A stretch of 39,984 nucleotides of DNA from NCBI GenBank assembly GCA_040143965.1, contig JASJQH010000039.1:1-39984 (forward strand), in the 5' to 3' direction. The DNA comes from Basidiobolus ranarum (lineage: Eukaryota). The notes below the pieces were generated by a model that ran no database searches, was not told where the DNA came from, and worked only from the letters and a program-made list of their open reading frames with translations. This document shows, piece by piece, positions 725 through 39,984 of this stretch (its first letter is position 1; every line of letters begins with the position of its first letter). The translations under genes were made by a program, and so were the position numbers.

Positions 725-2670
725 ATGCTGAGAACAACTTTCTTCAACCACGTTGTGAAAAATCCAACACCTTTTGTAAGTGCCTCTGGCGCTAGGATGC
801 AAGCTATTACCCGTCAACTTAAAGTATTGTTTGCTTTCCTAAAACATTCTGACCATTACCTCAGCTTACCAATTTCTCTTCTATTCTCACTTGACCGTTC
901 TATCCATAGGTTGAGAGATCTTATAGCACCATTAGCCCCAAGCAGGTACGATCAGCAAGGATTCTAACTATTCGTTTCTAATTTTACTGACTTGAACCTT
1001 CACCAGAACGAAGTCATTCATCAAAAACTTTATGGTGGTCGTACCTTTGTCTTAAACAGACCCAAAGTTTTGAATTCCCTCAACCTTCCCATGATTCGTC
1101 AGATTTATCCTCAACTTCAGGTATTTATCTGATATTATTGTACCGTCTATTCTTTACCCTAATATTTCGTCGGTTGTCATAAAGGCTTGGGAACAGTCCG
1201 ATCTTTGCAAAGTCATCCTCATGAAATCTAACAATCCAAAGGCCTATTGTGCTGGTGGAGACGTTGTTGGTTCGTAAACTTATATTTGTATCATATATAA
1301 TCACCTTACTAAACCATTCAACAAACAGAGGTTACTCAAGGGGCTAAAAACAATAACCCTAACTCTCTCAAGTTCTTCGAGGAAGAATATCGCCTCAACT
1401 ACACTCTCGCTACTTTAAGAACCCCATTCGTAGCTTTGATCAATGGAATCACCAGTAAGAAAATTCTTCATCATATTACTCATATGAAGTGTAATTATTA
1501 ATGATTATTTACCTAGTGGGTGGTGGTGTTGGACTTTCGGTTCATGCTCCTTTCAGAATTGCTACTGAAAATACCCTGTTCGCTATGCCTGAAACTCGAA
1601 TTGGATTCTTCCCAGATGTGGGTGGATCTTTCTTCCTTCCTAGATTGGACGGTGAGACTGGTACTTACCTCGCATTGACCGGTGATAGACTAAAGGGAGA
1701 AGATACTTTGTAAGAGTGGTTTCTTTAAATGTTAAATTATGTCACAATGAGAATAACATAGTATATAGGTACGCCGGTATCGCTACTCATTATGTCCCTG
1801 CCGCTCGTCTTGATGCTTTAGAAGAGAGACTCTGCGAGCTTGACACCTCTGATGCAGAGGTGATTAACCTTGCCATTGAAGACTTTGTTTCCGAACCTAC
1901 TGGACATGAATATAGTCTTGCCAAACATCGTAATGTTATTGACAAGTAAGTATAACATTATAACCTCCACCCTTACCTTTACCATTAATAACATATCGAA
2001 TATAATAGATGCTTCCGTCACGATACCGTAGAAGAAATCATGGAATCACTTGAAAAAGAAGATTCCGACTTCACCAAGAAGACTTTAGCAACTTTGAATG
2101 AGATGTCACCCACCAGCTTGAAGGTTACCCTTCGTGCACTTCGTTCTGGTCGCAAGATGAACATTGCTAATTGTTTCAAGATGGAATATCACTTGGCTCA
2201 GTCATTCTTGGTAAGTTATTCATAGATAAATATTAGATAGCATGTATCTTTTGAAACCAATCATTTCTACCTAGGCCGAACATGACTTTACCGAAGGAGT
2301 GGATAAGGCTTTAGTAAGCAAAACTAGAGATCCTAAATGGACCCCTTCTACTATCACTGGTGTAAGTGACCAATTGGTAGAACAAAAATACTTTGGTGCT
2401 AATCATCCTCACTCTCTCGAACTTCCCGACTCGTTACCTTACCTCGAATACCCCCATCGTCGTATGGCACTTCCCAGTGAAGAAGAGATTCGGAAATTAC
2501 TTACTGGAAATTTAGATCATAATGCAGGATCAGTTCAAATGAGTGAAGAATCCATCATCGAATGGTTCATGTCTGATCGTCAAGGAAAACATGGAGTCAT
2601 CGAAAAAGTACAAGAAACACTCGCCAGAAAAACTAGATCTGTATTGGGTGGACTTAGATGGATTAACTAA
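725..2670 (+). CDS. EHD3: Mitochondrial 3-hydroxyisobutyryl-CoA hydrolase (crotonase fold), multi-exon
   Basis: Basic presequence. Spliced exons give [71 protein letters not shown] and [10 protein letters not shown]...PKWTP. GT-AG introns e.g. 824-909, 946-1006, 1121-1184. Confidence 0.95.
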
Positions 2671-17913: not shown

Positions 17914-20900
17914 TTAAATTTCGATTTTTTGGTCTTTCAAGTAGTCGGTTGTCAAATCCTCGTACTCCTCTTCTTTCACCTCATGCTTAGCTTTGATCTC
18001 ACGTTCGATTCTACCAATACTTTCAGACGATAAGTCTCGAGTTAAATTCGTTGCTTTATCGTCACTATCATCGTCATCATTGAAGAAGTGGAAGGAGGCA
18101 TCCGGCGATTTTGGTGACATTATCCCGGCATGTTCTAACAGATCATCCTCGTAATAATCACTCACGCCGCTAATCACTTGTGTTGGCGGTGTGTTATAAA
18201 ACACCTCATCTTGTAACCATTTCTCATAGTTCAGCTTGAAGTTTTCATCCAATACTTCGTTTTCTGTTGAGTTATGCTCTAAAAATGACTCCATAGAGCC
18301 TACTGATGAATGATTGGGTTCTTCTGACATAGTGGCTTTTTGAAATATTTGCGGATACCGAACTTCGTTATAAAATGAAGTAACCGTGCGAAGTGATTGT
18401 TCTTGGGCCTAAAGCCGATCTAATTAATAGGTTTTTAGGGCAAAAATTACGATGTATAGAACCTTACCATAGCTTCTTCAACATGTTCGCTCCCTTCTAT
18501 CAAGTACATCCAATCTTCCTTTAATTCCGGCCGACAATACATATATACGGAGGTCACTAATTTCATGTTACCTAATCATCAATTAAGATCGTTTAGTCAA
18601 TTAAATAATCTCCAACATGATCATACTGATATCTTACTCTGTCTCCATTTCTTCCCCAGGTAGGGTATCTGACTCTTTAGAAACTTCAAAGCGTAGAGCT
18701 GGAGTTGAGGTTGGGTAACTTTTAGAATTCTTTTAAATAAATTCTAAAAAATTAGACCGAAAGTTAGTCAGGGAATCTAATATATTATCATGAACTATCT
18801 ACACTCACGGTTGATTTATAGGTAAGCACAGTGAGTAAAATTCGATGTTTCTTGCGTTTCGTTAGCTTTTGCAAGATTCGGAGCAGATTTATGGCAGAAA
18901 ACATGTTCCTCCAAGAGACAACCGCATAAGTTGCCATCTGTGGACGTCCATCTCCGCTTTTATAACTGTACTTGCTTTCATTCCTTCTCTGAGATGCGCT
19001 GATTTCTTGTTTAATCGAATTGAGGTTAAGCGGCAATGTTTCCGACGAGTACCTACTATATTGCATGAAACTATAGAATGAAATATCAATATTCACACAA
19101 GTGTTAGTTCTATCTCTTACTACAAGTGATAATAAGAGATTTACCTCATCTGTTTAATATCATTACGAACGCTAGTGGTTGCTGAAACATCTTGTACACT
19201 GAAGATTTTTAGAATCAGAAGTAGACAATTGGAATCAAGCAAAAGTTGACAAAAATGCTCAAACTTCAAAATGTCTAGATACAACTATAAGATTAATATC
19301 TCAACTTTAGAAGTCCTCAATTTAGATAAATTTACGTACGGTTTAGCTTATAATATTTCAGCATCAAAAGAATAATCGCCGAAACGGCTTTGGACATGAT
19401 TTCTTTGGTACGTATGTGTTCAATTGTTTCAATTGTTTTCATATCAAACGCTTCAAGATCGTATTTTCCGGCGGTAAATCCTTCATTCACGTCAAGTAAG
19501 TCATTCAAGTAGACACCGATCATATCATATAATAGTGGTATACTAACCTTCCGTAGATGAAGACATGTCGGGTCGATTGGGCAAATCGTCACCATTTTTG
19601 GAGTTGTTGTTGCCACTAACGCCGGTAATGGTAGCTAGTAACATTTTAAGTAAAAAAACCACCACATTTTGAGCCATAGGTAAAGTCGATGTCTAAATAC
19701 AACTAGAGTTAGCGAAATAAGGATAAAGATTAGCTCTCAAGATGTTCTCACGTATAGAGCTTCAATTCTAGTTAGAATCTTCCTTGCTTCCTGAATCTGA
19801 TCTTCTTCATCTTTAATGGAGTTCTCATTTTGCTCTGAAGTTGACTTCACATTAACCTTCCAAGCTGTGTCATTTAATTGATCCATATATTCCGTGAACC
19901 GTTCATCTTTCTCTAAAAAGCCTCTTTCGTACCTACGTACGAGTTCCGTTTCCTTATGCATTTGAATCATGCCAGGACTAATGTACATAAATTTTTCGTA
20001 TGTTTCTTTAGCCTCTAATATAGAGTCAGGTACGGCTGGTGACTCATAAGATAACGGCAGTACGAAAGGTTGATTATGTGAATCTTTTTTCGTTGATCCG
20101 TAAGAAGGCTCGAATTGATGTATTAAAGGATTTTCCTCTGCGTCAGAGAAGAAAGATGGAAATTTGAGGGATGTGTCGAAACAAAAGTGATGATAATCAA
20201 ACGGAGTGGTCTTCGGCTTGTGTGCTGTTGAGTTTGATAAAGATCAGTTGCTCAGTGGTTTCTGAAGTTATAGCATATTTATGTTGCTGAATTAAACCTA
20301 CGTTGATTATAATACAAAGGTAAATTATTAAGCCACCAAGCATAGCTAGTAATGTTTTCCAAACTACAAGAACAAGCTTGGAAAATGTTAAACTTTGACA
20401 GATTTTAACTACTTAATTAGTACGTTGAATGGAAATCAGCTTACCTTTTTTACACAATAATTGCGCCCATTAGTGAATTTTATTGCCGGAAGTATTTTGA
20501 ACAGAAACTCTAGGATTGGAGTATCCAAGGCGGCTGAAAAGTTCAAAGAAAGTGTTACCATTTTATGTTTTAGAAAGTAAGCATTAAACAAATGTATACC
20601 TAGCTCATCCCCAAATTTTTTCTCTCCACAATGTGTCTCAACGAGAAAGTAGATTAACGTTAGATATAGTTCTAATTCACTATGAGCTTGGCCGATCTCT
20701 TCTAACCACTTCACATCCTCTTTGGAATCAACTGGATCTGGACGTGCATCACTTACTTGAAAGTTTAGGCGACTATCAGACGTAAAGTTATGATCTGTCA
20801 AACTCTTACCGAATTTGTTCGTAATTAGAATAAGCAAGCTTCAATCCTTGATAAAAGCTAACTAATGCCCCGCAAGATCTTAGCATTTTGTTGTTTTCTA

Positions 20901-25959: not shown

Positions 25960-28900
25960 TTAGTTCTTGGCGCTTTTTAAGAATTCAGCATTACGACCTA
26001 GGCGTGTCAATATTTGTTGACTTAAGGTGCGAATAGCTGGTGATTCGAAACGCTTATCAGTCACCACAGATTTGATGGCTTTTTCAAAGGCAACAGGATC
26101 CCAAGTCTTTTTGAATTGATCGTTCTTCAACTTTTTGGAAGAAGTTTGCTGTACTAGGTTTGTGAATTTAAGGATGTCCTTCAGACGAGATGTGTTCAAG
26201 GTCTTACTGCCTTGGTTATCCTCACTAACAGCAAATTCGAGTGTAGAGAGAATGGCGGACTTCACCTTTGGTAGAGATTTGATAAAGAGGTCTTCACCAT
26301 CTTTGATGTGGCTACGAATTAAGGTGGAGAGCATATTATAGGCTTGAGTTTCTCTGTATCCCTTGGCACTTACGGAGGGCTTGGTGAGTTCAAGGAGACT
26401 TTCAAAGAGTTCCCATCCAAGAGCGGGGTAACGATTAAGAAGATCCTGGAAGAAAGCAGGTTGAAGATTGCTTGATTTCTTGGTCATGTATTCACTAAGT
26501 GAAGCTTTATAAACCTCGGCAACCTTTTCGTTAGATTCCTGGTCTTCGTCAGCAACTAAGACACGAACTAGGAAGAGACTACTATGACTAAACAGTTGCA
26601 TCATAATAGAGTTAGGAGCTTTGCGGGCAAATTGATGAACTTCTTCCAAAATACTATGGGCATTCGCAGAATCCGTAATCTTTGGGTGTTCCTTCACTTT
26701 GACTAGCCTGTTCTTCAATAAGGCAACGGCCTTCTCACCAGCTTGCTTGTTGGCAGTGTTCGCAGCAGAGTTACGAACAAATCTTAACAAGGGAATGATA
26801 AGATCGAGAAGAAGTTCATTTTGAGGTTGCTTTTTGATGAAGATTTCAAGAAGATCCAAGATTTTGTTCTTGAAATGCAAAATACTTTGTTTAGCATCTC
26901 TCTTTTCAGCTTTCATCATCTTCTTGTGCTTGAATATCTCAGCCAATTTAGCGTCGAAGTCACCCATTTCATCGTCACCCAAAAGCTCTTCTTCCTCATC
27001 CGATTCTCCCTCCTTTTGACCAAAAGCAGCGGCTAATTTGGCTCTAAGCTCCTCATCAACCTCTTCGCCATCCTCTACAGCATCTTCTAGATCACTGTCC
27101 TCTTCACTTTCATCGTCATCATCATCTTCCTCTTCATCCTCTTCTTCATCGTCGTCCTCGTCGCCATCCTCCATCTCCTCGTCGTCATCCTCAAAGAGTT
27201 CTTGCTGGCCGGAGACATCTTCTTTGGTTTCAAGAATGCTAAGTAAAAGATCCAAGGCAGTCTTGGTCATTCTATCACAGAAAGTCTCGAATACTTGCTC
27301 AGTTAGATTTCTCAGCATAACAGAAGGCTTAGCGAGGAAACTGAGAAGGATATCGACGAGAACTTCAATTGGCTCAGGCTCGGCTTCGTCCTCTTCAACT
27401 TGTTTCTTCTTGGTAGACTTCAACTTCTTAGGAGCAAATACTTTTTGATAACAATCTTGTAATTCTTCCAAGACACCAGTAGCTTCTTTAGGCTCTACTA
27501 GAAGTTGTAAAATCGGGAATAGTAAAAGCAATTCGAACGCCTTATACTGGGAATCAGCTTGCTTGTCTCCTTTAGCCTCGAGTTTACGGAGTTGATCCTT
27601 GATCTTTTTGACGGTATCCAAAGCCTCCTTACGCACAGCAAGACTCTCAGGTGAGAGTTCATACACAGGTAAGAGATTTGAATCTTTCTCGAACTTAAGC
27701 AATAACTCTACAACCACAAAGGCCCAAAATTCACCACCGTCCATGGTACCATGGAGCTTTTTGCTAACTCTAGAGGTGTTGTTCTCTTTGGATAGCTCAG
27801 AAACCTTGGAAAGAGGGGGCATACGACTCAACTCGGCAAGCATACTGAAAAAGCGTTTTCGACAGAGTTCTCTGGTAGATTCGGAAATATCTGGGGTGGG
27901 CTTAACACGCGCTTCTTGAATAGAACTCTTAGAGTTGACTTTCTTGACTTCAAAGAATGAATGGACCAAGAAGAATTGAAGGATGGACAAAAGCCATGAT
28001 TCTTCACGTGGAATACGAGTATTACGAACAAGAGCAAACAATTGATCAATAGCCCAAAAGCGTTGTGCCTCTATTCCTTTCACACGATCATCCTCAGTAG
28101 CTGAGGAATCAGAGTTATTGTTGAATACATCCTTGAGATATGTAATATAAGAAGTAACTCCTTCATTATCCATAGACCCAAGAATGGTCTCAACGGCTTT
28201 GGTTTTGGTAAATTTATCAAATTGTTGATTGCCATTTTTACCTTGGAGTTGCATTACCAAAGTAAGAGCGACATCTTTGTTATTTTCAGCAACACCCAAA
28301 ATGACTGACATTGTATGTTTGGCACTCTTGTTAAGGAATCTGTCTTCAGAAGTGAGGTTGTTGATGAAACATCTCATGAAATTGGTGGTGAAAATGAGTG
28401 GCATTTGGGATGAGGGCAAACGAGGAAGAGCTTCTTCGAAAACCAGGAATCCCCAATATTTACGTTCATGGGAAGAGTTGGCATTGAAAAGTCCTTCATC
28501 AACCACAGTCTTCCAGAATTCAGGGAATGGCGCGCGCTTAGCAACTACAACTTCAGTGGCCTTGGATTTTTTGCTTTTCTTGGCACTAGGGGTAACTGGT
28601 ACTTCTGGTGTAGAATCAAGATATAAAGCCAGGACCCTCTTCCATACGGAATGGAGATGAGGGTGCCAGTTGGAGAAAAGTTGGGGATCTTCACCAGACG
28701 ATTCTTTCAAAATAAGCGCAAGCTTATGTAGGTTGGCAGAATGAAGAATTTCTCCGTGCTTCCAATTAGGAAGCAAAGCGGGCCAGTCGAGAGTGAATTG
28801 AGATTGCATAGCAAGAACAAGATCGATCTCTTCGGGAGTTTTCACCCCATTCTTGAGAGCTTCTGAAAGTATGTAACTCAAAAGTTCTTCCTTGAACGAC

Positions 28901-29539
28901 AACTGCTTCAAATGAGGAAGCATAGCAATAATGAGCTGATAGCAAGGCTCTCTCAAGTAGCTCTTAATGTTAGAATACTCAACCAGACTTTCAACCAATT
29001 TCTGTAGATCGACAAGTTCGGTTGTTTCACGAGCTAGCATTCCAGATTGAATTATGGCCATGAAGCCGAAGATTCTACCAAAGAGCATATCACGCTCTTC
29101 TTGACCTTTCATACTACTAGTTATCTCGGAATGTTTGAAAATCAGCTCAATGATAACTTTAACTGGAATGAAATCAAGGAAAGATAATAGCTGAATGTGA
29201 AAAGACATTTTTTAGTTTAACTATATTTGAAAGTCACTAATGAATTAGCATTCATACCTCGGTTAAAGCCAACGCAAAACCCTGTCTAGCTCCTTGTCTG
29301 GAACTGGGAAGACCACGAATCAGACGCTTGACAGAGTAGGATACATCCTGAGCGCAAAGAACGTCTAGACGCTCTTCAGTAACAGGTTCTTTCAAAAGAG
29401 CCTCGTATTCATCTCCCTTCTCGTCTCTAAAGGCCTGTTGGAAAGAAACTAAAGAAACTATAAGTTTTTTTACGGCTGCTTGGCGCGTATTAGCATCAAC
29501 AGCAGCAAGATCCCAAAAAAGTGAAAGGGTAGTAGACAT
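25960..29539 (-). CDS. POL5: DNA polymerase V / MYBBP1A family nucleolar protein, 2 exons (29539-29258, 29190-25960)
   Basis: FWDLA, YSVKRLIRGLPSSRQGARQGFALALTE, GQEERDMLFGRIFG, SSHERKYWGF and an acidic tract. Confidence 0.95.
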
Positions 29540-29860
29540 TATGACTGGGGTGGCGGGTCAGCACTCGACTCTCACACTTTAGGTCTTAATAGTATCTTGA
29601 TACTGGTCCAAGTCCAAAATTGGCTTTCTGAAGTGACGAGAAAAATGTAGGAACCAAAAAAAAAAAAAATAACATCCAAACATCATTTCTAAACAATTTT
29701 TTTTATTACAGGTTTTAGGAACTTTCGAACACATCCATGATTAATCAACGTTGTATGCTGATATGATATCCTCTGATCAATTAGAATAGCGGTAATTTAC
29801 CCAAGTACTTCCATGTATGACTCTGGTTTTGAAGTGGTCATGGTGTACAAGTGGTTTTGA

Positions 29861-29993: not shown

Positions 29994-30557
29994 TCAAGCA
30001 GTTTCTTCAGCAGCGGTAGCACGAGTGTAGATGAGTTGGGAACCATGGGTGGATACCTTACGGATCATGCCCTGATTTTCCAATTCTCTGATAGCAGCAC
30101 GAGCTAGGGAACCGTTGATACGAAGACGGTCAACCAAAACGGAGGTGGTAACAAGTTTATATGTAGGAGTTTCCTTCATCAATTTGTCCAATGTGGCCTG
30201 ATCGAAGACGACCAAGTTGTTGGCCTTGTCCTTGACCTTTCCCTTGGACCACTTCTTTTTGGTCTTTTTTCCTCCGGAGGTGGGCTTAGCAGGAGCGTCC
30301 TTCTTAGCCTAAAAAACATCGATTTAGTTGTCATGTAACTGAACTAATTTTCATCAAAGACAACGCAATAGCAACCAGCAACCAAATATCCATGTATAAA
30401 CCAATCAGAATCGACGTAACTTGTAGCACTCTACTGTCGCAATCCCACGTTAGCATTACATCCATCCATCGTCTATCATAAAGGTTGCTGGCTCGATTTC
30501 GATGTTGACTGTTTACTATATCTAAGTAGGCGTAAATAACGCTTGTGAACGTACCAT
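29994..30557 (-). CDS. RPS25: 40S ribosomal protein S25 (eS25); coding part of exon 1 is only the ATG (30557-30555), exon 2 is 30308-29994
   Basis: [50 protein letters not shown] donor and TTTTTAG|GCT acceptor. Confidence 0.97.
30399..30486 (-). ncRNA. Candidate intronic snoRNA (box C/D-like) in RPS25 intron
   Basis: 246-nt intron. aacc-ttt-ATGATAGA ... CTGA-tt-ggtt with short terminal complementarity, plus an outer ccagcaacc/ggttgctgg inverted repeat. The C box is imperfect. Confidence 0.35.
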
Positions 30558-32744: not shown

Positions 32745-33737
32745 ATGCGGTCTTTATTAGCCCTTTTTGTATCCACTCTATTTGCCAGCTTGGTAGTTAG
32801 TCAAAGGTCCACTGAGAATATTCCAAATAATCTTCCTCAAGTAGAATACAAGCTTTGCGCCACTACCTTCAATTATAAGCAACAAGAGTATATTGGTTGT
32901 ATTGAAGTCGACTCACCCGGAAAGCCGTGGTGTCAATTAGCCAAACCTCATGGCAAGGCTAAACAAACTCGAGGCTTTTGTAAGGTTGAGAGTATTCCTA
33001 AAGCGTTAAGTGTAGAGGTAAAAGGGGTAGCGGTGGAGTGTAACCCTTCTTCGAACACTCCCTTGGGAAAAGTTTACGGCTGTTATACGGAAAAAAATAA
33101 GAGTAAGAAATATCTGTGTGATGTCGGGAGTAAAACTGTAGAATGTGAGGGATTCAAAAACGACATTCCTGGTGGTAAGAATTGTCTTTCTTTTTATGAT
33201 TTTTTGAAATTCGAGTCTTAACTGTTTTTGTTTATCATAGGACGCCAAGTTCAAAATGAGATAGCAGAGACAAAATCAATAAAGAAATTGGAACAAGGAA
33301 AAGGAAACGAAGCTGCAGTACAAGCTTACGCTACTCAAACTAATCCAAATGGGGAAAGCGTCCCTAAAGGGCTCATTGTAGGATTGGCCTCAGCAGGCTG
33401 TGTAGGTCTTCTTGCTGCGGGCTTATTCATGGTCCGCAAACGTTCGGTTTCTCGCCAACTCAAAACCCGGTTGTACGAGAATAATACGTTGGAAAGTAGC
33501 GAGGTAGGACTCTCATTCAGTGGTCATGGACCTGTGGAGAGAAAAATACACTCGAAGGGACCTTTCCTTGTTGTTAGTACATATACTCCCACCTTGGGAG
33601 ATGAAATGGAGATTCTTCCTGGAGATATGGTGACTTTACTTCTTGAATATGATGATGGTTGGGCTCAAGGAGTCAATGAAAGTCGTGGAAAAGTCAAGGG
33701 AGTTTTCCCTAAGCACTGTCTTGAACCATGGGCTTAA
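32745..33737 (+). CDS. Type I membrane protein: signal peptide, two Cys-rich FN2-like repeats, TM helix, C-terminal SH3; intron 33175-33240
   Basis: In-frame splice G|GTAAGA...ATCATAG|GA. TM LIVGLASAGCVGLLAAGLFMV followed by RKR. SH3 VVSTYTPTLGDEMEILPGDMV...YDDGWAQG...KGVFPKHCL. Confidence 0.88.
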
Positions 33738-34460: not shown

Positions 34461-37400
34461 ATGATTGGCCATAAGCGGCGTCACACGGTTGCCGGTAGAG
34501 TAAGAAGCGCTGTTGAGTCTGATAATGAGTCCGAAGAAAACGAATCTGTGTACGTATAGTTGTACTTTAGATAAAGGCTTCCTTTTCCATTTTAACACAG
34601 AGTATTCACTAGTTTCGAATCTGAAGACGCCCAACTAGAAGGGAACGAGGTACCTGAAAATCAGTAGGTTTTTATTCACTATTTTCTCTATAAAAAATAA
34701 ACCCCTCATTTAATTCTATTCTACCAACGCAGTGATACTCTTGCAAATGTTGGAATTGATGATACCGAGGCCTATTCGGAAGATGATATTTTTTTTGGTG
34801 GAGATGAGATATGTACGGAGGAATTATCGGCTATGGCTCGCCTGCAGCGTATAGAAAAAGTTACTCCCTTACTTCAAAAGTGGTGGAGACGCATTTTACG
34901 CAGACGCAATCAGGAGAGTGCACCAAGTGGTTCATTGAATGTTGAGGAGATAAAATCTAACTCTGATGCCATATCTACTACGGACCCCGAGTCAAGTTCA
35001 TCCCTCCATTCTCTTAATCATCCTTCAACGGAACAACAGTGTAGTGAGAATGAAATCTCCGATTTACCAGTTGCAGAATGTGAACATACTGAGACCGAAA
35101 ACACTGAAGTCGACCATTCCTCTCCCGAAAGTATCCCGAAAGGCAAGCAAGCAGATGTCCCTCCTGCAGTGGATAATGAACTACACTCTAACTTGACGAA
35201 TAAGTCTACAACAACCACTGACACTCTAGCATCTGTATCACATACTTCAGCCGATATGAAGCCAAGCATTAAAAGCAAGAACAAAATCAATGGAAGTTCA
35301 AAAAGCACGATAAGTAATGTAGTAGCTCGTTTAACCTCAAAAACAAAAGCTACCCCAAAGCCGAGTGACAGTACTAGCAAACCGCTACTCACTTCTCGGA
35401 AGAAAAACTTATTGACAGACACCAATGAAGCACACGATCGAAAAAAGATTGGCGTAAATCGCGAAAAACTTGTTGACAGTAGATCGGGTATCAAATCTGA
35501 TGTGAGTCAAACTCTGAACCCACCGGTGCCAAGAATGTCCAAACCTAGAGAGACTGTCACTATTCGTAAGCCTTTAGGACCTACAGTTGCATCAACAAGC
35601 AAGAAAGTCGTTCCTAACAAAGACCCCCAAGTACTTCAAGGAGATCGTACAACAAGCAGGCAACTAACTGTTGGAAAAAAAGTAGAGAGTAATGCGGGCC
35701 TTTCTAAAGTGAACGAATTGAGTAGTAATCCAACACTGAAATCCACAATCAAGCGACCTATCTCTTCAAATTTCGTAAATACTAAGCTACGTCGTCCCGC
35801 AAATGGAACCTCCATTCAAAAAGATGAGCCAAAGTCTTCAATACCAAAGGCAAACTTGCAGAAACCTTTGTTAAAATCGTCAACATCCTCCAAAATAATA
35901 GACAGTAAAGCTCAAGCGTCGACTACACTCCACAAATCTCACATCGATGCTCTTCCAAAGAAAACGACCCCTGTTCACAAAACGGAGACAAAACCTTCGA
36001 TATCCTCAAAATTTCAAAACCCTCCTCCCAACATCACTCTTCGTAAGCCAGCTTCTATCATAAAAAAGGACGGTAAAAACTTGAATTCTGCTGCTAAATC
36101 GTCACACCTATGCGAATCCTCTTTGGCTCCTAAAAAATCGGATATCAAGTCTTCAACTGAATCAAAGCTTCAAAAACCTGACTCCAGCTTTAAACCAAGT
36201 GCTCAATATTCTCAACATTCTAAGATCCCAAAGCCGGGTCAAACACCAAAGATTGCTGAGTCTTCCAATTCTAGTACCTCTCAAGAGGTTGTCAATACTC
36301 ACTTAGATGATAATACCAAGTTATTCATAGAGCCAGTCGAGTCCTTGAAAGAGCCGTTAGAGCAGCTCAATACTACTTCAAGTACACCTCAGATTGAAGA
36401 AACAACAATGGATATCATTGAAACCCCGAACCAAGAAGATCTGGTTCCTGAGAGATCACTCGCTCCACTCTCAGAGTCAATTGAGACCTTGGAAGAATCC
36501 CTAGAGCAATCTGATGCTACTCAACATGTGCTTCAGATCGAAGAAGTAGCTATGGACATCATTGAGCATCCTGAACAAGTAGAGCTAACTTCTGAGAGAT
36601 CGCTTACTCCACCTACAGAGTCGGTTGAGACCTTGGAAGAACCATTAGAGCAGACTAATGATAATCCAAGCGTGCTTCAAATCGAAAGAGATGCAATGGA
36701 GATTATTGAACAACCAGGCCAAGAAAGCCTAATATCCGAGAGATCTACAGAAGCAGTTGGGGTCTTGGAAGAGCCGTTAGAGCAGCCTAATGCTACTCTA
36801 AATACACCTCAAATCGAAAAAGAAAAAGTGGGTATCATGGAGTATCCAGACCAAGAAGATCTAATTCCTGAGAAATCACTCACTCCACCCACAGAGCCAG
36901 TTGAAATGTTGGAAGAGCCGTTAGAGCTGCTTAATTCTACTTCAAGTGTACTTCAATCGGGTACCGTTGAGCATCCTGAACAAGTAGAGCTGGTTTCCGA
37001 GAGATCACTCACTCCACCCTCAGAACCAGTTGAGATGTCGGAAGAATCGTTAGAGCAACCTGATACTACTCAAAGTTCCCTTCAGGTCGAAGAAACAACA
37101 ATGGATATGATTGAACATCTAGAAAAAGTAGATCCGATTTCTGAACGATCTGGTACTCCACTCACAGAGCCGGTTGAGCCCTCGGAAGAGCCGTTGGAGC
37201 AGCATAATGTTATTTCAAGTACACTTCAAAATGAGGAAGTAACAGTGGGTATCATTGAATATCCACACCAAGAGGATCTAATTTCTGAGAGATCGCTCAC
37301 TCCACCCACAGAGACGATGAATACTGATCTATCTTCTATAGAAATTAACCAGAAGCCCTTGTTAGAATCTATTTGTAACCCGGTTGCTCTTGAAGGACCC

Positions 37401-38960
37401 ATTAATGTTCAAGAGAGTGATACGCAATGCGATGACGAGGTAGATGCTAAAACCATGAGAGTTGAGTATGATAATAACTCCTCTGAACCGGAGTGCTGTT
37501 TGAAAAACAAGCTCCCCCCATCGCCCATCGATGAAACACACAAAGCTCTAGCCAACTCTACAGACGAGTCATGCAATACCTTAGTTGATACTCAAGAGTC
37601 TGGAATAGATCCAGTAGTAGATGATGTCGCTGTGGAGAATTCCATTGAGATCCAGGAGAAATCTGACTCTGAGCCAACACCAGCTTTATGCGAGATAACA
37701 ACCACTGTGGAGCCTATTGAGGAACAACTTGCTGACACCTTGAAATCAGACGACCTCCACTCTAATATTCAGCCATCAAGTCCTATGAGTGAACCTATTA
37801 ATATGACCAAGGGCTCTCATACTAAAGCTTCTGAGACTGGAGATAATTTGAATAAAGACGAGAAGACTTGTATCGAGCCGCTGTATAAGCCAGACTCTCA
37901 AGTTTCGAACTCTGAACATACCCGAGCCTCGTCTTCTGTAAGTACAGATCAAAAAACACCGAGACCTGAAGTAGATCGCCCCGTCTTGAGCGACACTCCA
38001 GGAAATAGAAGACTCTCTATCCCGCGCAAGAGAAATAGTATGCTTAACCTACAAGATACGTTGAACCAGAGAAGATTATCTACTGGTAGACGTAAATCAC
38101 TAGACAGAAAAGTTGGCATCAAATCTGGTCCTCGTCGAATCTTGAGATCGTCTACGAAGACCTCACCCGAAAGCATCTCAGAGCAAAACCCTGAACTAGA
38201 TCATTCATATGATTCTAATCCTTCGAAGTCTGGCACTGAGAATCTAGAAGAGAATTTTAATACTGATTTGAATGAATGTATCACTCTAGATCCATCTGAA
38301 TCCACACCCTGTGCTAGACGCTCCCTTCGACCCAGAGCTACACCCAAAATACAATCAGAGATAACTACACATGATGAATCGAAAAAGGTAACTACTCCCA
38401 GAAGTATAGGGAAGCCGCGACGCAGTCGTAATATCACCCCTGAGCCGGAGCCCGAACCAGTTGATCCGTTTTCGGAAATCATTACTATAGAAGCAACGAA
38501 CGAAAATCCTTTGAAGCGCAAGCCCCCATTCTCGTTCGATCGCCCTCTAAGTCAAGTTAATGCTTCCTATGTGCGTGCCGTAACCAAAAATCTTACTCAG
38601 TATAACTCTGGATATCATCTGTCCACCCTTCAGCTGGTTCCTATTCGTATGGGAGTCCCTAGACCTCCCAGTCCGACTAAAAAACTCATCGATAGGATGG
38701 AGCAAAAGCGCACCATTACGGAGATTCGTGAAGAAAGATCCTCTCAAGAAGTATCACATGAGCGTGGACATAAGCGCGTAAAATGGGACCCATTATTAGT
38801 ATCGATTGCATCCAAAAAATCGACCCCTTCTAAAGCAGCCACTAGTTCAACACAAACCCCATGCCTCTCCACCGTCAAAAGAAAATACCATCAGTCTTTA
38901 GAGCACGAGGTTGTTAAGATTCAAAAGATGATCTGGTTAGAAGACGAACAAGATATTTGA
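34461..38960 (+). CDS. Large intrinsically disordered protein (~1460 aa) with SxIP motifs, acidic tandem repeats and a C-terminal RVxW motif; 3 exons
   Basis: Introns 34550-34600 and 34664-34732 join ATG 34461 in frame to the 1375-aa ORF. Confidence 0.8.
36330..37313 (+). repeat. Coding minisatellite: 7 copies of a ~144-bp (48-aa) unit, two of them shortened
   Basis: Unit EPVExLEEPLEQ...QIEE..MDIIE.P.QEDLI.ERSLTPPT is repeated. Confidence 0.92.
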
Positions 38961-39654: not shown

Positions 39655-39984
39655 TTACAACAACCAACGTACCAAAGGTATAGCCATTGCAGCGACAACC
39701 ATAGGATTTACATTCACTGAGGGTGCGGCATTAACACTTCTCGCATTACCAGCCTTTACTTGAGCCTTGGTATCTTCCAAAGGTTGTTCAACAAATGGAC
39801 TAGGTGTTGGTTCTTCAGAGGAAGATTCTGAGGTTGGTGCTTCGGATGAAGATTCTGAGGTTGGTTCTTCGGATGAAGATTCTGAGGTTGGTGCTTCAGA
39901 TGAAGATTCTGAGGTTGGTGCCTCAGAGGAAGATTCTGAAGTTGGTGCCTCAGAGGAAGATTCTGAAGTTGGTGCCTCAGAGGA
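39655..39984 (-). CDS. 3' end of a Ser/Thr/Glu-rich cell-surface protein with probable GPI signal (partial)
   Basis: Minus frame reads (SSEAPTSES)n...NAAPSVNVNPMVVAAMAIPLVRWLL*. Stop at 39657-39655. Confidence 0.8.
   Translation of the reverse strand, partial: SSEAPTSESSSEAPTSESSSEAPTSESSSEAPTSESSSEEPTSESSSEAPTSESSSEEPTPSPFVEQPLEDTKAQVKAGNARSVNAAPSVNVNPMVVAAMAIPLVRWLL
39808..39984 (-). repeat. 27-bp coding tandem repeat (SSEAPTSES), at least 6 copies, runs off the window
   Basis: gaagattctgaggttggtgcctcagag-type unit repeated. Confidence 0.93.

Follow-up and report, generated by a model that had tools for sequence, protein, structure and literature searches.

A divergent fibronectin type II domain and an SH3 domain in a predicted type I membrane protein family of early-diverging fungi

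A gene for a predicted type I membrane protein was found on the forward strand at positions 32745-33737 of a 39,984-nucleotide (nt) stretch of Basidiobolus ranarum DNA (contig JASJQH010000039.1; this whole stretch is referred to as the window). The spliced product is predicted to consist of a signal peptide, a divergent fibronectin type II (FN2) domain, a second four-cysteine module, a stalk, one transmembrane (TM) helix, a cytoplasmic linker and a C-terminal SH3 domain. An earlier reading of the window, made from its letters alone and called here the sequence-only reading, had proposed the core of this arrangement, with a divergent FN2 domain outside the cell and an SH3 domain inside, and Pfam matches, Protein Data Bank (PDB) matches and topology signals all agree with it. 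The architecture was found to recur in Basidiobolus, Entomophthorales and Zoopagales.

Identity of the FN2 domain

The first module occupies amino acids (aa) 38-79 (nt 32856-32981, forward strand) and reads C-ATTFNY-x7-C-x9-WC-x12-RGFC, letter for letter as the sequence-only reading had given it. Its cysteine gaps of 13/10/15 agree with the FN2 spacing (about C-x13-C-x9-13-C-x13-17-C), and gaps of 13/9-13/13-18 were observed in the other 18 family proteins that retain all four cysteines. This four-cysteine spacing is shared with canonical FN2 domains (PF00040; MMP-2/-9, fibronectin, PDC-109/BSP, ELSPBP1, factor XII and the mannose-receptor family), and the window protein also keeps the aromatic residue at the F-P-F position, Tyr44, Tyr49-x-x-Cys, Pro-Trp-Cys and Gly-Phe-Cys. 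Unlike the canonical domains, it has neither the proline of F-P-F nor the tyrosine of N-Y-D, and arginine stands for the last tryptophan. A further difference from the canonical FN2 proteins is that the domain occurs as a single copy, in a fungus, and on the same polypeptide as a TM helix and an SH3 domain.

The Pfam fn2 family was the sole family reported for aa 1-143 at E<=10 (21.1 bits, E 3.1e-4), while the full-length protein scores 17.3 bits and aa 29-140 (112 aa) score 22.3 bits, where the gathering cut-off of the family is 22.2 bits. Relatives exceed this cut-off, with 35.3 bits for P0031, 26.5 for P0019, 25.3 for P0018 and 23.5 for P0010. All six matches of a single-sequence phmmer search of the PDB (E<=10) are to FN2-bearing proteins (PDC-109, Endo180/MRC2 and factor XII), PDC-109 having an E-value of 7.2e-4. 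A HMMER scan of 1.84 billion representative proteins (E<=1e-3) gave 47 matches including the query. Among the other 46 matches, 41 have fn2 at or above the cut-off, two are just under it and three show no fn2 at E<=0.01; the latter are P0030 (a false match to a low-complexity repeat), P0012 (a family member) and P0043 (in which FN2-like repeats can be recognized by eye).

The match to Pfam fn2, at threshold for the window protein, is clear for the profile of the family. A profile of 21 family ectodomains (alignment A3; the second alignment used below, A1, has ten rows) found MMP-9 as its best match in the PDB with an E-value of 5.8e-23, and further matches were to MMP-2, PDC-109, fibronectin, factor XII, Endo180, SEL1L, CI-MPR, PLA2R and the mannose receptor. 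Of the 36 matches, the 28 best (E<=1.2e-3) are all to FN2-bearing proteins, as we presume from the names of the matched proteins, and after these come DEC-205 and, at E 0.005-0.09, four kringles. Every match lies on module 1, with per-domain independent E-values down to 2.8e-7. Pfam fn2 was also found at E<=1 in 20 of the 21 ectodomains (best E 3.4e-12), and a hidden Markov model (HMM) built only from 41 canonical FN2 modules gave scores of 14.8-39.4 bits on all 21 family modules.

Kringles are touched weakly by these profiles, as Pfam Kringle appears in three of the 21 ectodomains (E>=0.015) besides the four PDB entries above, but FN2 scores far higher. FN2 and kringle are related folds, and the weak touches agree with this relationship. 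Module 1 itself is unlike a kringle domain, which has about 80 aa and six cysteines, in being only about 42 aa long with four cysteines.

A convergent cysteine-rich motif, or a known fungal cysteine-rich domain (WSC, CFEM or CBM), might be mistaken for FN2 in a protein that taken alone scores at or under the Pfam threshold and in which the signature proline and two aromatic residues are substituted. Such a reading does not account for a family profile that reaches E 5.8e-23 in the PDB and recovers only FN2 proteins and then kringles, nor for the positive scores of the canonical-only HMM on all 21 family modules. In addition, no Pfam match to WSC, CFEM or CBM/dockerin was found for aa 1-143 at E<=10 or for the 21 ectodomains at E<=1, and no other known fungal cysteine-rich domain was found. 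We consider this alternative extremely improbable, as it appears to be effectively refuted by the profile evidence, and we regard module 1, on its sequence, as a true but divergent FN2 domain. The two Piptocephalis proteins (P0065 and P0067) have both lost Cys2 (replaced by Gly) and Cys4 (replaced by Met or Thr-Met) while keeping Cys1 and Cys3; a joint loss of this kind is expected from C1-C3/C2-C4 disulfide pairing.

The substitution of the proline and of late aromatic residues, which the sequence-only reading had pointed out, is borne out by alignment with PDC-109 and canonical modules, where His69 and Arg76 are the aromatic positions concerned. In domain b of PDC-109 an aromatic pocket is formed by Tyr75, Trp93, Tyr100 and Trp106 (PMC2823774). 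An ungapped alignment to this domain places Tyr44 and Trp62 at Tyr75 and Trp93, and the other two positions are those of His69 and Arg76, so that two of the four pocket residues are kept. The position of Tyr100 is variable across the 21 family ectodomains. The aromatic pocket is a functional feature and not one that defines the fold.

The second module (aa 99-134, nt 33039-33146, forward strand) had been described as a degenerate FN2 repeat that keeps the C-x13-C spacing. The spacing is present (gaps 13/11/8), but its scores are no better than those of shuffled sequences with the cysteines fixed in place. A comparison of module 1 with module 2 by hhalign gave a probability of 4.7%, and against the FN2 HMM module 2 scores a mean of 1.8 bits versus 0.3 +/- 2.5 for the cysteine-fixed shuffles. 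The hhalign scores of module 2 against canonical FN2 were equalled by 9 of 60 and 38 of 60 shuffles, and those against FN2 including the fungal modules by 2 of 60 and 8 of 60. An HMM of module 2 gives scores of 10-11 bits on a few true FN2 modules, which is a faint hint only. A decayed FN2 origin is therefore unsupported in four tests (hhalign, the FN2 HMM, the shuffle controls and the module-2 HMM). No relative of module 2 was found in Pfam or the PDB, and it is best described from its sequence as a conserved, family-specific module with no FN2 signal beyond the cysteines.

Gene model and protein architecture

The annotated features of the gene and its product are as follows.

32745..33737, forward strand: whole gene from start to stop codon, from the open reading frames; the spliced product equals P0003
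32745..33174, forward strand: exon 1, encoding aa 1-143 and the first base of codon 144; the junction between IPG and GRQ is as in P0003
33175..33240, forward strand: intron of 66 nt, phase 1, with a GTAAGA donor, a TTAAC branch-like site and a TAG acceptor
33241..33737, forward strand: exon 2, encoding aa 144-308 and the TAA stop
32745..32801, forward strand: predicted signal peptide, aa 1-19 (MRSLLALFVSTLFASLVVS), the second most hydrophobic 19-mer (mean Kyte-Doolittle 1.81), with a putative cleavage site
32856..32981, forward strand: FN2 domain, aa 38-79, Cys 38/52/63/79, from Pfam fn2, PDB matches, alignment with canonical FN2 and the canonical-only HMM
33039..33146, forward strand: second four-cysteine module, aa 99-134, Cys 99/113/125/134, cysteines invariant in A1 and A3, with no Pfam or PDB match
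33147..33368, forward strand: extracellular stalk, aa 135-186, polar and charged, interrupted by the intron, with 19% mean pairwise identity in A1
33369..33434, forward strand: predicted TM helix, aa 187-208, followed by basic RKRSVSRQLKTR; the most hydrophobic 19-mers (mean Kyte-Doolittle 2.0-2.2)
33435..33566, forward strand: cytoplasmic linker, aa 209-252, with 16.6% mean pairwise identity
33567..33728, forward strand: SH3 domain, aa 253-306, ending two residues short of the C-terminus, from Pfam SH3_9 and PDB SH3 matches

The gene is made up of two open frames, one of 158 and one of 102 codons, with the intron between them, and an unspliced read-through would meet an in-frame stop at 33219-33221. 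The two-exon model is supported because removal of the intron reproduces P0003 exactly; the spliced product of 308 aa is 100% identical to this protein, which is named 'hypothetical protein K7432_001668 [Basidiobolus ranarum]'. The gene is native to Basidiobolus ranarum, with a GC content of 0.39-0.41 that is the same as that of its flanks and with housekeeping genes (DNA_pol_phi and Ribosomal_S25) as neighbours. No second copy was found within the window by tblastn; no Rfam family and no tRNA was found, and the flanks of the gene contain no notable repeats.

A hydrophobic N-terminal stretch occurs in all ten rows of A1. The basic residues on the C-terminal side of the TM helix point, by the positive-inside rule, to an N-out/C-in topology, and we therefore infer a type I membrane protein from these sequence features. 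The three modules that presumably fold are the best conserved parts, with mean pairwise identities of 66.6% in SH3, 46.1% in FN2 and 35.5% in module 2 and of 17-33% elsewhere, and all eight ectodomain cysteines are invariant in A1. The SH3 domain is the most conserved part of the protein, and this conservation extends across more than one phylum. It scores 33.4-34.9 bits with Pfam SH3_9 (cut-off 30; SH3 families PF14604/PF00018), and its residues Y258, W284 and P300 do not vary among the rows of A1. Among solved SH3 domains, those nearest to it belong to p47phox, vinexin/sorbin, CIN85 (SH3KBP1), CD2AP and intersectin, the best E-value being 2.2e-7.

Several other features were noted in the window. 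On the reverse strand upstream of the gene, a large DNA polymerase phi gene (POL5/MYBBP1A-like) occupies 25960-29557, its 1083-aa frame scoring 732 bits with Pfam DNA_pol_phi; a frame of 101 aa at 29252-29557 has the appearance of the first exon of this gene. An exon for ribosomal protein S25 lies at 29994-30308 on the same strand (Pfam Ribosomal_S25, 140 bits). Downstream, an open frame of 1419 aa at 34701-38960 (forward strand) has no Pfam family and contains acidic repeats of about 48 aa, which show up as a 144-nt tandem array at 36448-36745, with units like ERSLTPPTE.VE.LEEPLEQ. At 39655-39984 on the reverse strand, a 27-nt tandem repeat with 6.6 copies (94% match) encodes SSEAPTSES units of a mucin-like protein rich in serine and threonine (Ser/Thr-rich) that runs off the end of the window. 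In positions 1-26000, 11 of the 13 tested frames of at least 130 aa have no Pfam match at E<=1e-4. Two exon-sized frames match Pfam families, at 2275-2667 (forward strand) to the C-terminal end of ECH_2 (31 bits) and at 19740-20243 (reverse strand) to the start of DUF3402 (35 bits).

Distribution and origin of the family

Proteins with the same architecture were found in Basidiobolus, Conidiobolus coronatus, Neoconidiobolus thromboides, Entomophthora muscae, Syncephalis plumigaleata and two Piptocephalis species, genera that are assigned by NCBI taxonomy to Basidiobolomycota, Entomophthoromycota and Zoopagomycota. The sequence-only reading had noted that FN2 is not a standard fungal domain, but the present case is not an isolated one, as the domain heads a conserved family that spans Basidiobolus, Entomophthorales and Zoopagales and of which some members already carry an fn2 label in databases. 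Three full-length paralogues and a fragment are present in B. ranarum, and B. meristosporus likewise has three full-length proteins and a fragment. The full C-x-F-P-F-x-Y...P-W-C...W-x-[FY]-C signature is carried by unnamed family members from metagenomes.

Relatives in Mucoromycota (Umbelopsis, Jimgerdemannia and Paraglomus) resemble the family only in the TM helix and in the SH3 domain, which is highly conserved; their ectodomains are rich in serine, threonine and proline and contain no cysteine modules, and a relative in Spinellus has a different cysteine-rich head. The TM-SH3 tail is homologous to that of the Mucoromycota proteins with a Ser/Thr-rich ectodomain. A homologue search limited to aa 195-308 returned only four proteins, all already among the set of 39 homologue-search matches, and this set, from a word-limited search, contains no named relative from Dikarya. 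Among the 47 matches of the 1.84-billion-protein scan, the combination of FN2, TM helix and SH3 was found in none outside the family. A separate group in that scan (P0017, P0037, P0042 and P0043) has repeated FN2-like modules with an extra cysteine pair, following the pattern C.W.P...C..F.Y.G..Y.GC...PWC...W..C...C, and a shared C-terminal region.

In a family tree of 27 rows (SH-aLRT support only), Basidiobolus and Entomophthorales form one clade and Zoopagales, together with the unnamed rows, form another, a split which fits vertical descent; the placement of the head-less Mucoromycota rows between the two clades is not settled in this tree. In a tree of FN2 modules, 18 fungal modules stand on one side of a branch with 41 canonical modules on the other (SH-aLRT 88 on 41 columns, which is weak), and the fungal modules do not branch from among the snake modules of sperm-binding type that also have the EVDSP loop.

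This loop raised the question of a recent horizontal transfer of the FN2 head from an animal host. In the Basidiobolus clade the loop GCIEVDSPGKPWC (nt 32892-32933, aa 50-63) closely resembles SCTEVDSPN(R/H)PWC of snake FN2 proteins of epididymal sperm-binding type (P0020/P0029), CIEVDSPGKPWC is like CTEVDSPNRPWC of the snake sperm-binding-type FN2 proteins, and the habitats of Basidiobolus include reptile and amphibian guts. The genus is likewise described as an inhabitant of animal digestive systems (PMC7466969). On the other hand, fungal lineages that are far apart have the head, module 2 included, in common and the family tree follows their taxonomy, the weakly supported module tree keeps the fungal modules apart from those of snakes, and the gene has the GC content of its flanks and a spliceosomal intron. 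On the family tree, GC content and module tree we accordingly reject a recent transfer out of a reptile or amphibian, and such an acquisition is in our estimation highly improbable. The FN2 head may be either ancient opisthokont heritage or the result of an old transfer. Queries of the Protein Atlas gave sub-threshold matches only, namely Basidiomycota hypothetical clusters at 0.76-0.84 and, by structure, a bacterial PhoD+fn2 cluster (TM-score 0.33) and generic SH3 proteins.

Proposed function and significance

The protein is, with somewhat better than even probability, a surface sensor of contact or adhesion, or a scaffold, with the FN2 head outside and an SH3 domain that recruits a partner inside. 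The head, with its predicted disulfide bonds, would bind a ligand or surface outside the cell, and the SH3 domain, which is strongly conserved, would then recruit a conserved cytoplasmic partner to the site of binding. The resulting contact or adhesion sensor would be wired in the manner of yeast Fus1, and the analogy in layout suggested by the sequence-only reading is apt, as in the Mucoromycota relatives the TM-SH3 tail is even joined to Ser/Thr-rich ectodomains. These heads resemble the head of Fus1, which is reportedly O-glycosylated, to judge from the title of a cited reference. Fus1p of S. cerevisiae is a type I membrane protein with a cytosolic tail that has an SH3 domain near its C-terminus and that binds polarity proteins (PMC2063912). 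Type I topology and a C-terminal cytosolic SH3 domain are found in both proteins, compared here by layout only. The Fus1p tail has 416 aa with a proline-rich region (PMC2063912) whereas that of the window protein has about 100 aa and no PxxP, and unlike Fus1p the head of the window protein consists of a predicted folded FN2 domain and a cysteine module. Sensors of the Mid2/Wsc1 type are like the window protein in their type I topology, with a head for sensing outside the cell and a short tail in the cytoplasm. The window protein differs from them in having no WSC or other known fungal cysteine-rich domain by Pfam; sensors of this type are not known to carry an SH3 domain. Mid2p is described as a type I sensor of cell-wall integrity (PMC2063912).

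Several points weigh against this interpretation. The function is read from the architecture alone, and the protein by itself lies at or below the Pfam fn2 cut-off (17.3-22.3 versus 22.2 bits). It has no proline in the F-P-F motif, has histidine where PDC-109 has Tyr100, and has arginine in place of the tryptophan of W-x-[FY]-C that is present in 16 of the 21 family members. Because the proline and pocket aromatics are substituted, ligand binding may be altered or lost in this paralogue, which is also the longer branch of a duplicate pair in the family tree (0.31 versus 0.11). The SH3 domain in turn has an invariant Cys303 at a position that is tyrosine in many SH3 domains, and its partner motif may thus be unusual.

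As for the ligand, the sequence-only reading had considered the host matrix. The layout of a surface sensor with an SH3 output is retained with FN2 outside and SH3 inside, but the host matrix as ligand is weakened because the same head is found in Syncephalis and Piptocephalis, which parasitise other fungi, and because only two of the four pocket aromatics are kept. We therefore regard it as unlikely that the protein is a host-matrix adhesin or receptor that uses its FN2 head to bind collagen/gelatin or phosphorylcholine lipids of the animal host, in its gut or tissue, and which signals this contact via SH3. It would be in keeping with such a role that choline phospholipids, gelatin, glycosaminoglycans and lipoproteins are ligands of the FN2 domains in BSP proteins (PMC4557993), that the nearest named canonical FN2 relatives are epididymal sperm-binding/PDC-109-like proteins of reptiles, platypus and a bryozoan, that Basidiobolus, Conidiobolus and Entomophthora are animal-associated and the lineages comprise parasites or commensals (PMC10386755), and that Tyr44 and Trp62 correspond to two of the pocket residues of PDC-109. 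Zoopagomycota, however, are primarily mycoparasitic or animal-associated (PMC10386755), and the remaining pocket positions (His69 and Arg76) and the longer branch of the window paralogue also speak against it.

A cycling trafficking or endocytic cargo receptor, in which FN2 would be placed as it is in the mannose-receptor family, CI-MPR and SEL1L and which SH3 would tie to the endocytic actin machinery, appears more doubtful still. The PDB matches of the family profile do include MRC1, MRC2, PLA2R, DEC-205, CI-MPR and SEL1L, and endocytic adaptors (CIN85, CD2AP and intersectin) are among the proteins with the nearest solved SH3 domains, along with p47phox and vinexin/sorbin. However, the SH3 likeness is generic (E 1e-7 to 1e-3), with no functional specificity. 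Furthermore, the short tail contains no nameable sorting motif, and the mucin-like heads of the Mucoromycota relatives are typical of fungal surface sensors. A broader idea, to which we give a similarly low probability, is that the head and SH3 together form an ancient host- or prey-contact receptor of zoopagomycote fungi that triggers polarised growth or an infection structure. The ligand would then be one that is common to animal and fungal hosts, such as choline phospholipids or surface proteins that are collagen-like or glycosylated, and the plant-associated Mucoromycota would have retained only a generic mucin-like version. If this were true, FN2 would be older than the metazoans as a module of extracellular recognition, and fungi would use it for parasitism.

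FN2 is usually treated as a module of the animal extracellular matrix. A domain-origin study of 2006 placed it at the chordate node (PMC1654190), and FNII-domain proteins were described in a unicellular relative of animals in a paper of 2026 (PMC13366479). No description of a fungal FN2 domain or of the present architecture was found in literature searches aimed at fungal FN2, and an apparent report of fungal FN2 (PMC6023273) proved to concern 'Fibronectin Type III'. Among genome papers on these fungi, 'fibronectin' and 'SH3' have no occurrences in the main text of PMC10079182, PMC7466969, PMC11105155, 10.1101/2023.12.22.573025 and PMC10386755, and 'fibronectin' has none in 10.1101/2025.03.31.646025, in which 'SH3' was not searched. 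In UniRef, P0006 and P0013 are named 'Fibronectin type-II domain-containing protein', and precomputed PF00040 and SH3 assignments are present on 8 of the 39 homologue-search matches. Since databases already attach fn2 to some relatives, what appears to be new is the combination of domains and the lineage in which it occurs, both modules being known already.

The claim made here is thus a modest one, as both domains are known, some relatives are automatically labelled and the function is deduced. Within these bounds, a conserved receptor-like family with an FN2 head in early-diverging fungi provides a data point on the history of FN2 before animals. In our sample the FN2 head occurs in animal- and fungus-parasitic lineages, with a mucin-like head in its place in the Mucoromycota relatives. 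The family may therefore offer a concrete candidate for surface sensing by poorly studied parasites, including opportunistic human pathogens.

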